Below, one piece after another: positions 16,180-31,450 of a stretch of DNA of 64,000 nt. The stretch is from Trichoplax sp. H2 (taxonomy: Eukaryota). A program made the position numbers and the translations under genes. The notes beneath the pieces are model-generated. The model was not told where the DNA came from. It worked only from the letters and a program-made list of their open reading frames with translations, and made no database searches. Where the stretch lies: contig NOWV01000017.1 of NCBI GenBank assembly GCA_003344405.1, positions 744,001 through 808,000 of the forward strand, given 5' to 3'. Within the stretch, counting starts at the first letter, position 1, and each line of letters begins with the position of its first letter.

Positions 16180-18195
16180 ATGGAGAGTATCATCGCCAAT
16201 GTTGATAATATCAAATTTACTATCGAATTTGAGCTCGATGACCAAATCGGAACACAGCAATTACCCTTTCCAGGAATGGATAGTAAGTAAAAAATGTATC
16301 GCTAATTGTTCATTCCATTAAATACGATGTATAGCAGTTATAGTTTACAGTAGTACTTTTAAGTAAAGCCAGTTTGTCAAAATTCTTGATAGAAATATCT
16401 TTAACAAGATACATACATGAAATTATTAATTGTCCGCATCATACTGGATATAGATTATATTCAAATAAACCACTGTACCAGATGTATCGAGTGACACTTT
16501 TATTACCTAATCGATGCCAACTTTGTTAATTCATGGCTATATTTTGACTAGCATGATACGAGATTGTAACTACTACTGCAGATAAATATTCATTAGCATA
16601 GAAAGTTAACTATAGGAGAGCTTAATATTTCATCCATTCAAAATCTGAAACATCTTTGTCAATGTAACGTTTTAGAATCTGGGGCAGCTGTATGCACCTA
16701 TTTCGCAGAAAGTCAATGCGTAAAAGGGTCAATGTGCCCTTTCCGTCATACTAAAGGCGATAAAACTGTCGTATGCAAACATTGGCTGCGAGGGTTATGC
16801 AAGAAAGGTGATCAGTGCGAGTTCTTGCACGAGTACGATATGACCAAAATGCCTGAATGTTATTTTTATTCAAAATTTGGTAAGATCTGGCACATCCGAT
16901 AATGCTTAGCAACAATACTATTGTAAGCTGACCCACAACATTGATTTATTTAGGTGAATGTAGCAATAAAGAGTGTCAGTACTTACATATCAATCCAGAA
17001 AGTAAAATTAAAGATTGTCCGTGGTATGATAGGGGTTTCTGCAAACATGGTAAGGGAGCGTGTTAAGCATTTTCAATACACTTAAAGTTGTAGCAGTTAT
17101 CACACTTTTGTAATCTTGTACGTACACTACATTGTCAATACAATTCTTTACCAACTTTCTATGCACTTTCTATTATAAACTCATTATAGGCCCAGCATGT
17201 AGACATCGACACGTCAGAAGAGTTGCTTGCCTAAATTACCTTAATGGTTTCTGCCCTGAAGGATCAAACTGTAAACATGTACAGTAAGTAATGTAATACA
17301 TGTATACTCGCATATACGCGTAAATTAAGAGTTTTAATTACAAGATTTACGAGAGTATCTTATGAAAAGATAGTAAAATCCATGACAATAGTATGAGTTT
17401 TCTACTCTAGTACAAGGCCACTGGTTTAAATTTTGGAGTTCTTTCATGTTTTTTATTCTCCATTTAAAGTAGCAAATTGATTTTATTGTAAGCTGACGCA
17501 ATTGAATATAAGATACCTCAGCTGAATTGATATGCTTTGCAAATTGATCATCATCCTGACCTTTTATTGTTGTACAGCTTAAGGTTTGAACTACCGACGA
17601 GAGAAATCGATATTCATTCTGAATCTAAACGTAAACCTAGCGTAGTAGTTTGTCATAATTGTGGAGAGTATGGACATAAAGCCTCCGCTTGTCCTAATCA
17701 GCTTATCTCTATTCAAAAGGAAGTGAGTAAAATATCAATCAAATCTAAAATAATATCGTATGTTATTGGTATTGCTCTTCTAGTTCCTAAACTTTGGTTT
17801 ATTGTCACACAGAATAGCCTAACCAATGATAATGGTAACAGCATTGGCATATCTCACGACCAAAATCAACAACAACAAAAGCGCCCTATGGATCAAGTTA
17901 TCTGTTTCAAGGTATTGAAAACTGTAAATTTTCAACTTTGTCCATAGTGTGTAACGTATAGATCTGTATAAATGCATGAAATCTCACTTTAGATTAGGCT
18001 GTACTAATATTGCGATTTTGTATCTTTAGTGTGGAGATAGAGGTCATTTCGCAAATAGGGTAAATATCTTCTCGTGTAACGCGAACTACCTAATTTAACG
18101 TCTACTCATGATTTTTTCTTTCTCACATTATCATAAAATACTTTTATTATTTTTATTTATATTAACAGTGTCCCAAACAAGGAAAGCTGAGGTGA
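16180..18195 (+). CDS. CPSF4: Cleavage and polyadenylation specificity factor 30 kDa subunit (5 CCCH fingers, 2 CCHC knuckles)
   Basis: [121 protein letters not shown], stop at 18193-18195. Confidence 0.97.
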
Positions 18196-19750: not shown

Positions 19751-21233
<1,483 letters not shown>

Positions 21234-24316: not shown

Positions 24317-25222
24317 AATGCTTGTCCAAGATTGAGTATACTATAGGCTACAGTTTAGCGTATGGTAATGTGTTATACTAAAAGCTAGTTCCTGCTAGTT
24401 TTTGACTTAAAACTACTGATAGTATTTTATGCTTTATGTAGCGGGCATGCTATCAATAACGTTATATCGACTAGTAAGTTGTGTTTATTTACAGTACTGT
24501 CTCACTGACAATTAGAATCGGCTTAGGGTGGCAGTGGTATCGTTTTCGTAGTAATTTTGAAACTTCATAATACGATATAAATGTGTTCAAACATCAACTG
24601 TTATATTATTGAAAACAATAAGTTACAATACGTAGCGTCTGATCAGTTGAAACCGCAGTACGGAAGTACGTCAAAGACTTAATTACCAAGCTAACGAATT
24701 TGAATTAAAAAAATTTTAATATTTGTGTATCTCGAAATATTTATCGAAACCGATCCAGACTACCGGTACAACTTCCGCTATTCACCCTATGATAAACTGT
24801 TAAGAACTGATCGGTGTAATACCGTCAATCCAAATTAAATATAATCTACAAAACGAATTTATTACCCTATTGCAAATAAAATTTCGATTTAAAATCTCTT
24901 TTCAGTTATTTTATACTTTCGGCAAAGCATCATACCTAAAATTACTCTTTTTCAATCTAATTAGTAATACACTTATATTTGAAACTATAATGCCCCTTCA
25001 GTAGACTACTGCAGTATTAATCGCCTACCTCATCAATTAATAATATTGTACTATGAATCAATTTTATTTGTTCCTGCTATTTGTCAATCGTTAAAAAGTA
25101 AAGTAAAATATTTTATAAAATATCTATGACCTTTTAGTAAATGCTGTAGATTAATTTACGCCGTGCATATAATAAAACTTTAATTTCCATTGAATAGCAA
25201 TTATTAATTACAAGATTTCATC

Positions 25223-28200
25223 TTAATCAACAGTTACAGACCAACCAATATGACGAAAACAAATAGCAAAGTACAATTTTATTTCAGGCTCAGGCAAGTA
25301 CCACTCGATTGTAATCTGTCTCTCGCCGATTGTAAACGAAACTCTTAGTCTCTTTGGCATAATTTCTTGTGCACATATGCTAATAACATTGCCACGTCGT
25401 AAAGGTGGCAATTTATTCTTTAACGCGTTCCCATCTTTGTAAATTAAGCCAGAGCTGCTGATGTAGATAGCACCTGGCTGTCTAAGGTTCCGTTGCACGA
25501 AGTCCACTCGATTATTAGCAAGTCCAATAGCATCACTTGATTCTGACTTACCGGTCCCACTAACAATTAGCGTGATTGTTTCACCTAAAATATAACAAGT
25601 GCCACTAGAGCGTAAAATTGTGGCAACTTCGCTAGAAATTCGCGTTGCTGTTCGGCCGTCACTGCTAATTTCATATTCCATCTTTGCATCGGGATCGCTA
25701 CGAAAATTTTCCAACGCCCATTCTTTCACAAATTGTATCAGAAAAACGATGCTCAAAAGTTAATAATTCTTGCAGAATAAACCAGCTGTATACTCTACTA
25801 TTTAAGATTTAATACACTATTGTAAACAGATAATTTAACCCTTAAAAAGCGTCAAGTCTAGCGTCAACAGATCATGCACATAGAAGGATATCATATCCAA
25901 CCAGGAACTAAACTGAACTAAACTACGTATTATAAGTTCTTAATCATCTCTTATAAAAATAGTGCCGTTCCTAAAACTAACAATACGTGTAAATATTTTT
26001 ACAGTAATAAAATAACTGATATAGAATATCGAATATTTAGACCAAACTTACTGTGTGACGGAATGGCTGTACGACCTGTTTTAGGCTCGCTCCACATTCC
26101 CCAATCAGAAAAAGGGGAAGGTCGTGAACGCACGCGAAAACTGTACGTCGTTGTCGAAAGTAAATCTCTAACGACGAAATAGTTCGGCCTTCCCGAATAT
26201 ACTGTTTCGTATTTAACTTTACCCGGTGTTTCTTCATAGATATCACCTTCATAGATTTGTAACTGATATTCTTTGTCAGATTGCGAATTGGTATCTATGG
26301 TATCATCGTTGTGCTATATTAAGTATAGAAGCATAAAAATATATAAAACTGCCATAAAATTGTTTAGATTAGCCAATTGAAAAAGTTTAAAAGGCATACT
26401 ATATCTTATCTAAAATATCATATAGCAATCTACTAAAAATTCATCTAGTTATTAAAGCCTTAGTTCTATAGAAAATACTCTCACCTCAGACCATTCAATA
26501 TAAAAAGCTCCAGGCCTTTCTACCATTTTAACAATGACTGGAATTTCTGATACAAAACAGTGGGACTGAATTGCATCTAAAATTGAATTTAGATATCTAT
26601 CATTCAAATTGACCAATATTGAACGCAGTTGACCACTTTGCTCATTCAAGCTATTACCACTAAGAGCAAAGAGTAAGACCCAGTTAATTTGGTTAAATCT
26701 CGCAAGATTTCACACTGCATTTACGTAATAATAGTAACTGATAACGCAGGATTTAATTTTAAAGATTCAAGTCTACATATTATATTACGGTTGCAAACCT
26801 CTGTTCTAAAAATTTTAAATTTTTTTGTTTGAGGGTGGCTTTATTGTTAAGAACTTCAGCATCTTTACTTTTAAGTAATAGCTTACCTAGAAGTTTGTTA
26901 ATAGTATATCCATGTTACTATAACAAGCAACGGTCTCAACCTATTTTCTAAAATTATTTTCTGTTAAGTAGTGATACACAAACTGTACATATGCATACAG
27001 CAACAAAGCATAAATAATATTTAAAGAATTTATCATGTATCTCGCTAAAGCTTCGACGTAATATATTCTTACATCATATATCTATTATTTTTTATTAACT
27101 ATTAGACTAGTTACATTATTAATGTACTTATTTGAGAATAAGACAAATTTTTCGTGCAATCGAAATGCCAAGATTACGATCAACTATCCTATAGATGCAC
27201 CAGCCAATATGTATATATATATATACGCATGGTAGCGGTATAAGCTTAATGCTGTAATTAAACATATCATATATTTCACGTACCTTCTTCCATAAGTACG
27301 ATTCCAGAAGCTAATTGTGTTGCTAAGTTCTCCTGTTGATTTAAGAATGGTTTGATATGTCGATGTTCCTGGGCTTCAACTTGAGCTAAAAGTGCATCTA
27401 AACGTTTTTCTAAGGCATCAACGATTGCTTTGCGCGCTGCGAATAAAAAAGGTTACAGTTGAAACCTCTTGTATACTTTAGGCATACTCTATTAATCATC
27501 CAGCAATTAAAATTAAAATCAAACGTGTTACAGTAGATACACTTGCGTAACCTTTCGTGAAATGGGCTGTTAATTGTCGTCGCGTGTCTGAAGCATTAGC
27601 AGTCATTTTAGCCACATAGTAAGCGTGTTTCCCCATTTTATCATCTATTTGATTACATACTCTCTTTACTTTGGCTAACGTATCAAATAGCTCCACTTTA
27701 CATTGCTTGACTGCCGTATTCATACCTTTATCTGCAACACCAGTCTGCCATATTTTAATAGTAACAATAATTATGTTACTAAAATATCAAATAGGCAAGG
27801 AAAACACAATAGTATTCACATCACAGAACATATTCCTTAATGCGCATAATTGGCTCACCTAAATTTTTAAATAACCTAAGAGCGTAAGATATGATATTTA
27901 TCTATATAGAAACTGTTATTTATGAGTAGAAACAACTGTATAAAGATATATCTAACCTTTCTGAACTTGCTGTGGAAATGATCATTTTTTATTAATTCTA
28001 AAAGAGAATTATGAACTTTAACATCTTTAACATTCTGTATTGCCAGTATAGATGCTTTACACATTAGAGGACAAGTTATAACTGATGATTCTTTAATGCG
28101 GACATGTTTCTCAATGCACTCGTTGCAGAATACATGGCAACAAAGCATTAAGCGTGGCAATTTGTCATCGCTAGTTGTCAGTTTTTCCTTACATAGGGCG

Positions 28201-29305
28201 CATGTAGTTAGCTTAGCTTCTACAGGTGATAGCACAGACTTGGTTTACCATGGTTATTCGAAGCCCATAAGATTTTAAACATCGGAAAATATAAAAATTA
28301 GTAACTACCCTTGTCTACAAAAGTCCTATTGCGTCTGACAGCAAAAAGAAGATAGATTTAATTTTCCAAAATGTAATTGTCGATATCGCATATTGAATCG
28401 TAATGATTATTATTGATATTTTACGCTTGTTTTAGCAATAGATTTGGAGTACGGTAAATGTTATAGTCTCGATTGTGCTTTGAAAAGTTTTTCAACTCCT
28501 TACGACTTTTAATCTCTTATTGTAATTGATACTGTTCACTAGTCATGCTAATATAACGAGCTAGTGGGCGTAATTACATACCTACAGTAAAGTATATGAA
28601 AGTTTATGGAGGATCAAATAAACTGATAATCTTGGTTAATAAATGATCGCTTGCATTTGGAATCTTATTTCTATGCAGGTGAATAATAGATTAATAGGTG
28701 CAACATTTTTGATCAACAGAAAGAAGTATCTTGATCTCCCTTACTAATTATTGTTAGCAAGGGTAAAAATATCGATACGATATTGTATAATTAGTCTATC
28801 CAATGAATATCTACAATCGATTACGCGTGCAAGTTCGAATTATTAATAACTTTATGGTAACTCACTATTAAATAGAAATGGACACTACTGTACGATACAA
28901 CACTAAGTTGCATTAAAAATTTGATCGAACGATCTAATTAAATTAACTATCTGCATCAATCGCAGGTTACAATTAGTTATTAACTACTAGCATTCCAATT
29001 ATAACAAAGTTTTTCATTTAACGCAATTATTTTGCTCTCTTCACTTTACATTGAACATGCTGTTTTAACATAAAAATAACAGATAGCATATGCAAGACGA
29101 ACGCAATTAGCTGCAACGATATTATACGAATGCGAAATGTAAATTGAAGATTTAGCAAGAATAAGTATCTGTTTATGATAGTTTGGCCACGGATCTTAAG
29201 CCACTATACAGTATACAGTAAAATTGGAAAGCAAAATAGATACATTAAAAGACGAAAATCAATGCTAACCAATCTCTTATACCTTACCTCATCGATAGGA
29301 TCCAT
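25223..29305 (-). CDS. CRLF3: CRLF3 homolog (coiled coil-FN3-SPRY-like) with an N-terminal C3HC4 RING finger
   Basis: RING exon ~27957-28238; coiled coil ~27553-27744 and ~27283-27437 (ASDTRRQLTAHF..LEKRLDALLAQV); ~26484-26650 (IPVIVKMVERPGAFYIEW); FN3 ~26054-26313 (YSFRVR..WGMWSEP); terminal exon 25223-~25722 (LYFAICFRHIGWSVTV). These match recalled CRLF3 motifs. The first exon MDPIDE (29288-29305) is tentative. Confidence 0.85.
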
Positions 29306-31450
29306 TTGATATCTCTACGAAAGTCTGCAATAGACTATGTAAAATACTGTCGTGAAAGCAGTGGAATTATTCCAGCGTTAACTATTGCATTAAGCTAACA
29401 ATAAAAAATCATAGCGATAGGTAACACGCTATTGTAATGCTTAATTCTATATGTAATATTACGTTCCTATGCTAGGGGAGAAATCTTAATATGTATCGAA
29501 CGATTTATATTTACTCGTAAACTTAATGTTATATTAAAGGAAGAATAAATAAACATTATCAATTTTACATAATATTGCAACATTATCCAATAAGGAACGG
29601 CTTACGCAGTATATTTTAGGCACAGCCTCTGCTTTATTTACACTGATACCTAAACATACAGTAGGTTAAAGTCATTACCGACTGTGTAAGTCCCGGATGA
29701 GGACATGTAAATAAATCACCTTAAAAATTGCACGTAGATTATGAATTAAGTTCAAGCGTAATTTCTAACTTTAATGATCACGTTTCATATAATTCATATT
29801 TATATACAGTATAGTAATGTAGCACGTCTCATACACGCATGTTTTGTCCATGACGGAAGGATATAAACGACTGGTTTTCTACGTATGCTATATATACATT
29901 TGGATATTGTCTTGATATTTCTGGGTTATTTTTTAATTGCTCCTAACCTGCAACCATTGAGGTATCCCAGAGTAATCAATATAATCTTGAAAATTACGTT
30001 TATCGTCATCATTATCGACATACGGGCTCGGGATGTATCGTATAAAATTTTCGCAGGTTATCACAAATGACATTATTAGGTATTGATTTCTTAATCTTTA
30101 TTATAATACTGTAATACTACAGTATACTAGCCCCAAGACCGTTCTAGGAACGGTTAGCCCCTTTGATTAAAATAGATTAATTTTATTTTGTTACTGATCA
30201 ATGCTAGATTCAAAGTATGAAAACTATACTGTGCTAGTTTGACAGAGTAGACAGTGTACATCAAACACACGTACACGCACAAATTTATTTTAACACAGTA
30301 ACGGATTAAGCTTGGATACCCTTGAATACATCCATAAACTTGTGGCACTTGTGCAATTTATAGGTTTTTTATTTTTTATCCGATAATTACTTTCATTACA
30401 GTAGCTTCTAGACTTTTTTGAGCTTTCATGATGATTATGCAGACATCAATACGTATTTTTTCGCTCAATGGGCATTGTACTGGTATAGTAAATCACACTA
30501 CTTTTATATTGTTACTTTTAAGAGTATTACTACTGGTATATGAAGATATATGTCTTGTAGTATTACTTGAAAGCTATGAAAACTTGCTATGGTGTTAAGG
30601 GAAAATGCAAGATTCTTCTTTCAAGTTTTCGCTGAATGTGATTTTGGATGAGAAAATATTAAGGCTGATATAGGAATGAAAATATTGAGTGAATAGGTTT
30701 GAGGGAAGAGTATACGATGCTAAGAATTTTATTTAGTGCTACCAAACAAGATTGAGGGTAGGGGCTGTAAAATGTGGTATTTCTGTTAATCCTGTTGCAT
30801 GTACTCGACTATTATGATGGAGTCCATGACTAGAGCAGAGAGTCAGTGACGATTATTTTTCTCTAACATGCTTTGCTTCTGCATTGGTATTGTACCGCAT
30901 TTTCTACACAGGTAGCCACGATAGATAGGTTTTATTTTATTTGCAGTCACTATCAAAATTGCAATACCTATGTTATGTGGTGTATTTGTTACAGGAATTA
31001 ATATGAAAGTCCCCGATCAGAATACATAATAGTCGAATTCAAGCGACGCAGAAGCAAGATCTCCTTAAAACGTCCGACCAGGGACTATTTGTACTAAAGC
31101 CTCCTGTTTCACTCCAAATAATCTCCGTCTCAATTCATACACAAATAGAATTAATTAATCCATTCATGATGTATATCAATATAGGCTGAGCAGCATTAGG
31201 TGAATTAGTGTCATTTTGGGATGTGGTCAAGGAGATTTAGTCAGGGACTTTTTGCGAATTTTGAAAATTCCCAACATTGGCGATACTCTTCTGTACCGTA
31301 TGACAGATTTGGAAACACAGACCCATGACTGACGGACTCCGGACGATACGGTACAGTACAGTTTTTTTAAATATACCGTAAGCGCGGTAACTCACTTCCA
31401 AGGCGGCGAGATATCTTTGAAGTTGTGGAAACTGCTTAAACACGTACACT

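Follow-up and report, generated by a model that had tools for sequence, protein, structure and literature searches.

A gene on the minus strand of a 64,000-nucleotide stretch of the placozoan Trichoplax sp. H2 genome (NCBI GenBank assembly GCA_003344405.1, contig NOWV01000017.1, positions 744,001 to 808,000; this whole stretch is called the window, and all positions below are counted from its first letter) probably encodes a soluble, intracellular ortholog of CRLF3 (cytokine receptor-like factor 3), 556 amino acids (aa) long, whose main mRNA includes an in-frame exon for a TRIM-type RING finger and which would be a putative self-contained RING E3 ligase. The RING-CRLF3 architecture is real and expressed, being found in spliced contigs assembled from public sequencing runs. 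The protein can be described as a CRLF3 with a RING or, equally, as a B-box-less TRIM-like protein.

The window is AT-rich eukaryotic DNA (GC 0.29-0.37). Splicing of eight exons between 29305 and 25223, all separated by GT..AG introns, gives a coding sequence of 1671 nucleotides (nt) and a product of 556 aa, which is 100% identical to GenBank protein RDD45312.1 (P0002 in our set; 556 aa), whose source name is "Cytokine receptor-like factor 3 [Trichoplax sp. H2]". The fused gene model is thus already public in GenBank. A TAG in the same frame stands 12 nt before the ATG at 29305. Everything that an original prediction, drawn from the letters of the window alone, had pointed out in this gene was found as described: the RING exon (CALC..CCHVFCNEC..CPLMC) ends in phase 0 at 27957 (AAG/GTTAGA), the acceptor placed near 27744 has its AG at 27746-27745 and starts the next exon at 27744 in phase 0, the methionine at 27723 is Met108 (27723-27721), the ends 29305 and 25223 are the start codon and the stop codon, and the WSXWS variant WGMWS of the FN3 domain corresponds to residues 374-378 (26089-26103), aligned with the WS-x-WS of mouse CRLF3. 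The parts of the gene are as follows, with UTR standing for untranslated region.

29288..29467, minus strand: exon 1, 5' UTR and the first six codons (MDPIDE), ATG at 29305, donor GAG/GTAAGG
28239..29287, minus strand: intron 1, 1049 nt, GT..AG
27957..28238, minus strand: RING exon, residues 7-100, 94 codons (282 nt), phase 0 on either side
27745..27956, minus strand: intron 2, 212 nt, GT..AG, separating the RING exon from the CRLF3 coiled coil
27859..27875, minus strand: alternative cassette exon in intron 2, 17 nt, acceptor ...CTCTTAG/, donor /GTGAGC
27552..27744, minus strand: exon 3, residues 101-164, linker and first part of the coiled coil, with Met108 at 27723-27721
27284..27436, minus strand: exon 4, coiled coil, residues 165-215, with the predicted dimer dyad near residue 169
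26799..26886, minus strand: exon 5, coiled coil, residues 216-244
26485..26659, minus strand: exon 6, residues 245-303, final helix and beginning of FN3
26052..26313, minus strand: exon 7, residues 304-390, FN3 domain including WGMWS (26089-26103)
25223..25722, minus strand: exon 8, residues 391-556, SPRY-like domain of the CRLF3 C-terminus, with the TAA stop at 25223-25225

The 3' UTR extends below 25223, with contigs reaching 25153 and 25192. No second RING, TRIM or CRLF3-like gene was found in the 64-kb window by tblastn searches with the protein and all RING matches.

Evidence for the fusion comes from the contigs of four public runs (of 21 found) from four studies, called X4, X7, X8 and X9 here, X7 being a run on record as RNA; contigs of this kind tend to lose rare forms and cannot reveal transcript starts. 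RNA spanning 27957 to 27744, which the original prediction had proposed to look for, is indeed represented: the joint between these positions, skipping 212 nt with GT..AG borders, is present in the contigs of X7, X8 and X9, that is, in three of the four runs and in three studies. The joint linking the ATG exon to the RING exon (29288/28238, skipping 1049 nt) is found in X7 and X8 (two of the four runs). Two contigs are fully spliced from the RING exon to the last exon, namely record 16 of X8 (1864 nt), which also includes exon 1 (29288-29467), and record 18 of X9 (1746 nt). X4 has no joints at all and its introns are covered; it behaves like DNA or unspliced RNA and is uninformative on splicing. 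The case that the original prediction had set against itself, a RING exon transcribed separately and a CRLF3 starting at Met 27723, is not borne out by these full-length contigs, which show the fusion, but agrees in part with a cassette isoform described below, in which the RING frame ends before CRLF3.

The older Trichoplax adhaerens reference model XP_002110069 (P0001; JGI, 488 aa) and the present protein are 99% identical over the part common to both. In the model the first six codons (MDPIDE) are spliced to an acceptor lying inside the RING exon (NVKDV...), and the zinc finger is omitted as a result (window 28034-28238 compared with the model). This model is probably mis-spliced, because the MDPIDE-NVKDV joint occurs in none of the four runs. 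Neither this joint nor a skipping of the whole RING exon is among the joints of the four runs, within the limit that contigs may lose rare forms.

A contig of X7, one of the four runs, carries 11 extra letters between 27953 and 27746. In our reading these represent inclusion of the 17-nt cassette 27875-27859, the aligner having placed its first four letters on the identical GTTA at 27956-27953. With the cassette included the frame reads ...FRK-V-I-stop, which leaves a RING-only open reading frame (ORF) of 102 aa, its premature stop being followed by six further exon junctions. Contig depth, a poor measure, is 23.5 for the fused joint in X7, 20.1 for the cassette form and 41.1 for the common downstream exon. 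Inclusion of the cassette could yield a small peptide consisting of the RING, or else an mRNA that is unproductive and prone to decay, so that less full-length protein would be made.

Some further features of these transcripts can be recorded. Record 18 of X9 extends 23 nt beyond the RING-exon acceptor into intron 1 (28239-28261) and is unjoined to exon 1. This may reflect an alternative start or RNA that was left unspliced; at 28251 there is an out-of-frame ATG with an ORF of 12 codons. The last 622 letters of record 9 of X7 (1885 nt, depth 71) cover 25100-25721, and this contig continues about 1260 nt further down without any upstream CRLF3 exon; it could be a long 3' UTR or the transcript of an overlapping neighbour. 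At 27740 (minus-strand codon 102) all four runs have T where the window has C, which changes Gly102 to Asp in the linker after the RING exon, and residue 102 is Gly in both deposited proteins. The difference looks like a strain difference rather than RNA editing, because X4, which covers the introns, has it too.

The N-terminal RING finger that had been proposed is recognised by Pfam above its cutoff (zf-C3HC4 at 25.5 bits, cutoff 21, and zf-RING_UBOX at 25.5 bits with the RING exon; 22.4 bits with the whole 556-aa protein), and TRIM RINGs are its top matches in the PDB by both sequence and fold. The zinc ligands are C19, C22, C39 (or C40), H41, C44, C47, C62 and C66, encoded at 28059-28202, and their pattern is C-x2-C-x16-C-x-H-x2-C-x2-C-x14-C-x3-C. 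A lysine directly follows the last cysteine, and a helix V-x-x-H-N-x-L-L-x-L-I comes after the finger; Leu21 and Lys67 occupy what we take to be the positions of the RING E2-contact residue and of the linchpin residue. The best PDB sequence match is TRIM23 (E 3.6e-07), followed by TRIM2, TRIM3 and TRIM32. An AlphaFold2 (AF2) model of the RING, built from a 20-row alignment, reached a predicted local distance difference test score (pLDDT) of 76.1 and a predicted template modelling score (pTM) of 0.70, with helices before and after the finger. All 12 Foldseek matches of this model at E <= 0.001 are TRIM RINGs (TRIM23, TRIM2, TRIM32, TRIM21), led by TRIM23 with template modelling (TM) scores of 0.67-0.83. 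Judged by sequence and predicted fold, the RING is TRIM-type.

A 97-aa ORF from a Logan assembly (P0003) is 80% identical to the RING exon, keeps all eight ligands as well as the last spacing, and departs from it just past the shared ...RK boundary, which suggests conservation of the exon and of its donor position in a more distant relative. Among the four runs the single difference within the RING exon is synonymous (28059). An exhaustive HMMER search with the RING exon gave 49 matches, P0003 being the one close match. The remaining 48, the nearest RING representatives outside this gene, are RING proteins of a generic or TRIM-like kind; 10 of them have a Pfam B-box, and in none is there an fn3, a SPRY or a CRLF3 body. 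When metagenomes were scanned with the RING alignment no relative emerged, all 102 pattern matches being rejected by tblastn.

The rest of the protein matches CRLF3. Residues 284-555 match the solved FN3-SPRY structure of mouse CRLF3 (6rpx) with E 9.4e-25, this being the only FN3 or SPRY chain that the PDB sequence search gave at E <= 0.01. Taken alone, the SPRY exon matches 6rpx at E 9.5e-14, its next matches being unrelated chains at E 0.25, and the FN3 exon matches it at E 4.6e-05, with Pfam fn3 at E 0.0032 on the exon; TRIM FN3 or SPRY chains are absent from these two PDB searches up to E 10. WGMWS is a variant of WS-x-WS near the end of FN3, with Gly for the first Ser. For the 99%-identical T. 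adhaerens protein a precomputed database listing gives the Pfam families PF27984 (CRLF3_N) and PF27985 (CRLF3_C), which our own Pfam searches of the 488-aa and 556-aa forms did not report. The matches to 6rpx support the gene as the placozoan CRLF3 ortholog and its coiled coil-FN3-SPRY as a true CRLF3.

The coiled coil spans about residues 108-280 and is separated from the RING by a 40-residue linker without a B-box; residues 67-114 have no Cys, and only three His occur in 67-110. A single FN3 was recognised in the protein by Pfam. Neither a signal peptide nor a membrane helix was seen, the maximum 19-residue Kyte-Doolittle mean being 1.33 and the N-terminus not hydrophobic. Because the RING is on the same soluble chain, placozoan CRLF3 is suggested to work inside the cell and not as a surface receptor.

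Prediction of a complex of two copies of residues 1-283 gave a score of 0.65, compared with 0.00 for the best of three controls, a pass that may be memory of solved TRIM coiled-coil dimers and would show likeness rather than binding by this copy. When this dimer mark was benchmarked, it was reached by 21 of 30 proteins solved as one-chain pairs and 0 of 23 solved as single chains from microbes. Among eukaryotic proteins it was reached by 17 of 29 pairs (7 of 16 in animals; only 1 of 7 that had no solved relative of earlier date) and by 0 of 30 single chains. Across the dimer runs contact agreement was at least 68% and partner pLDDT at least 64. The predicted contacts (for example 162-177, 158-181, 133-206 and 169-169) describe a putative antiparallel arrangement about residue 169, a geometry also seen in solved TRIM coiled coils and extending here over about 120 residues, and residues 256-283 fold back in the predicted dimer. 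In the mechanism we propose, two chains would pair via the antiparallel coiled coil, as in TRIM ligases, the RINGs would recruit a ubiquitin-charged E2, and the FN3-SPRY end would pick the substrate.

Several points weigh against the reading of this gene as a CRLF3 that is also a RING ligase. The ligase activity is one that we infer, and the last ligand pair of the RING, C62-x3-C66, is not the usual C-x2-C. Pfam finds no zf-B_box in the 556-aa protein at E <= 0.001 and no COS box (PF18568) at E <= 0.1 in the 488-aa form or at E <= 0.001 in the 556-aa form. After CRLF3, the next neighbours of the FN3 exon are LIFR, IL2RB, gp130 and EPOR (E 0.05-0.1, non-significant) and not TRIMs; the AF2 model of the whole protein, made from a 3-row alignment, is unusable (pLDDT 35.3); and the cassette isoform occurs in only one run of the four. 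An mRNA without the RING may also exist, starting in intron 2 and read from Met108; its 449 aa are near the CRLF3 median length of 438 aa (PMC6797617; what is said here of this and the other papers cited concerns the parts of them that were covered). Of the TRIM-like layout that had been proposed, the order RING-coiled coil-FN3-SPRY is borne out, but since the B-box and COS box are undetected the protein is TRIM-like and not a canonical class I TRIM. It is very improbable that two adjacent genes are present instead, one for a small RING protein and one for a classical CRLF3 read from Met 27723, with the fused contigs as read-through or conjoined transcripts of little consequence. Such an arrangement would fit the cassette isoform, which ends the RING ORF at 102 aa at a depth (20.1) similar to the 23.5 of the fused joint in X7, as well as the normal-sized CRLF3 that Met108 would give and the 488-aa JGI model of T. 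adhaerens, which has no RING. The 212-nt intron, however, is too small for a terminator and a promoter, and GT..AG splicing joins the RING exon to the coiled-coil exon in three studies with the frame open; neither contig ends nor loose ends point to a 3' end or 5' start of its own for either part, although such ends are beyond what contigs can reveal, and the JGI acceptor inside the RING exon is used in none of the four runs. A catalytically dead RING, serving only as a dimerisation or binding module and making the protein a pseudo-ligase adaptor like the RING-less CRLF3s, also seems unlikely, though less so. The departure of C62-x3-C66 from the RING consensus would accord with it, as would the modest Pfam scores (25.5 bits for the exon, 22.4 for the whole protein). 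Against it, the ligands and their spacing are kept in the 80%-identical second source, the RING exon shows only the synonymous difference at 28059 among the four runs, and the model folds confidently as a TRIM RING; neighbours tolerate variants of the last pair (C-P-x-D in the TRIM23-like neighbours, C-x3-C in P0006, one of 19 aligned neighbours), and Leu21 and Lys67 stand at the presumed E2-contact and linchpin positions. A RING-bearing, putatively active CRLF3 stays our preferred reading of the gene.

Two further explanations, both named in the original prediction, concern how the RING came to be there. In one, to which we would give an even chance, the RING is a placozoan novelty: a CRLF3 that had no RING to begin with would have received a TRIM-type RING exon at its front through exon shuffling, and the fusion would say little on CRLF3 elsewhere. 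The RING and its linker form one separate 94-codon exon of phase 0-0, which can be inserted or skipped without breaking the frame; a start at Met108 gives 449 aa, the usual CRLF3 size (median 438 aa, PMC6797617); the RING is unaccompanied by a B-box; and fn3, SPRY and CRLF3 bodies are absent from all 48 of the nearest RING proteins outside this gene. The Atlas, whose likenesses are leads without statistics, contains a CRLF3 cluster of 1678 members (438 aa) with no RING among its three listed families. What speaks against such a gain is that the CRLF3 body resembles the coiled coil-FN3-SPRY of class I TRIMs and FSD1, which makes a RING-bearing ancestor plausible, and that domain loss is frequent in TRIM evolution (PMC3137616). 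In the other explanation, which we hold as a tentative one, CRLF3 derives from a TRIM-like RING-coiled coil-FN3-SPRY ligase whose RING was kept in placozoans and lost toward cnidarians and bilaterians, as in FSD1 compared with MID1. Both halves of the protein are independently TRIM-like: the RING resembles those of TRIM23, TRIM2, TRIM32 and TRIM21, and in the Atlas the nearest clusters to residues 284-556 are a TRIM9 fragment cluster (0.92) and the CRLF3 cluster (0.90), then MID1, FSD1-like and TRIM36, while for the N-terminal half RING/B-box proteins and TRIM2 models come nearest. The Atlas structural model of residues 284-556 aligns with CRLF3, TRIM9 and MID1 models at TM 0.5-0.63, and the predicted antiparallel coiled coil of about 120 residues with its fold-back helix also counts in favour. 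Class I TRIMs and FSD1 are microtubule-associated. Mouse CRLF3 governs microtubule stability (PMC7614665), and CRLF3 is reported to promote the K48 ubiquitination of TBK1 (PMC12026705). To be set against an ancestral RING are the single RING-bearing lineage facing many RING-less ones, for which a gain is equally parsimonious, the missing B-box and COS box, the lack of statistics behind the Atlas likenesses, and the cytokine receptors found as the weak sequence neighbours of the FN3. Word-indexed protein searches with the SPRY exon, the 488-aa protein and residues 284-556 returned only the Trichoplax cluster, which reflects a limit of the index and is not evidence of absence.

The function of CRLF3 is disputed. 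It has been treated as a surface receptor for erythropoietin-like cytokines (PMC6797617) and, in a study that includes the FN3-SPRY structure, as an intracellular protein acting on microtubules and on Hippo-pathway kinases (PMC7614665); the word TRIM has 0 occurrences in PMC7614665. A 2025 review notes crlf3 in T. adhaerens, without a RING, and describes the N-terminal region as poorly defined; it also reports that CRLF3 promotes TBK1 K48 ubiquitination by an unclear route, mentioning TRIMs by analogy only (PMC12026705). Placozoa have been said to lack CRLF3 (PMC6797617), a statement that the Trichoplax locus contradicts. A description of a RING-bearing CRLF3 or of a TRIM origin of CRLF3 was not found in the parts of the literature searched, most subscription journals being outside its scope, and as far as we found, the meaning of the public fused sequence has apparently gone undiscussed. 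A natural CRLF3 carrying a TRIM-type RING on one soluble chain provides, by direct comparison, evidence of a role inside the cell that is linked to ubiquitin, and the Trichoplax RING-CRLF3 offers a testable protein for ubiquitination and SPRY binding. If the RING were ancestral, CRLF3 would not be a cytokine receptor in origin but would descend from a ligase of the microtubule-associated class I TRIM/FSD1 kind, and the bilaterian and cnidarian CRLF3s would be RING-less adaptors; the ties of CRLF3 with microtubules and with TBK1 K48 ubiquitination would then be accounted for, and the WS-x-WS FN3 would have been inside the cell before cytokine receptors existed.

Three other features of the window were noted. 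Downstream of CRLF3, an open frame on the minus strand contains Ribosomal_S4 N-terminal and S4 domains and is probably a mitochondrial-type or organellar gene of the S4/S9 family; the other two are unrelated to CRLF3.

20682-21233, minus strand: open frame with Ribosomal_S4 N-terminal (E 2.7e-14) and S4 (E 1.7e-06) domains
17534-17947, plus strand: open frame with a CCHC zinc knuckle (E 1.3e-05)
16690-16830, plus strand: region resembling the P0045 CCCH fingers (tblastn E 2.8e-05)

Compared with known systems, the Trichoplax protein is closest in its body to vertebrate CRLF3 (mouse 6RPX; human NP_057070 as given in the supplement of PMC6797617), with which it has in common a coiled-coil N-terminal region, an FN3 with a WS-x-WS type motif, a SPRY-like C-terminus and the lack of a signal peptide. 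It differs in having 107 extra N-terminal residues that include the RING, in its WGMWS where mouse has WSPWS, and in its length of 556 aa compared with about 438-442. With the class I cytokine receptors EPOR, gp130, LIFR and IL2RB it has in common a WS-x-WS type motif in FN3 (matches at E 0.05-0.1, non-significant), but unlike them it has neither a signal peptide nor a transmembrane helix, has one FN3, and is fused to a zinc-binding RING. The class I (C-I) TRIMs MID1, MID2, TRIM9, TRIM67, TRIM36 and TRIM46 have a like order, RING...coiled coil...FN3...SPRY, and the resemblance extends to the TRIM-type RING, the FN3-SPRY tandem and the predicted antiparallel coiled coil, whereas the Trichoplax protein has no detectable B-box 1, B-box 2 or COS box. 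FSD1 and FSD1L, relatives of the class I TRIMs, are coiled coil-COS-FN3-SPRY proteins without a RING; their C-terminal layout is the same as that of ordinary CRLF3, and they show that such an architecture can lose its RING. A COS box is found in 29% of the FSD1 Atlas cluster, while the Trichoplax protein has a RING and no COS box. Finally, RNF135/Riplet is a B-box-less TRIM-like ligase of the RING-coiled coil-PRY/SPRY type; it differs from the Trichoplax protein in having no FN3 and in the PRY/SPRY type of its SPRY domain, and it shows that a B-box-less RING-coiled coil-SPRY protein can be an active ligase.

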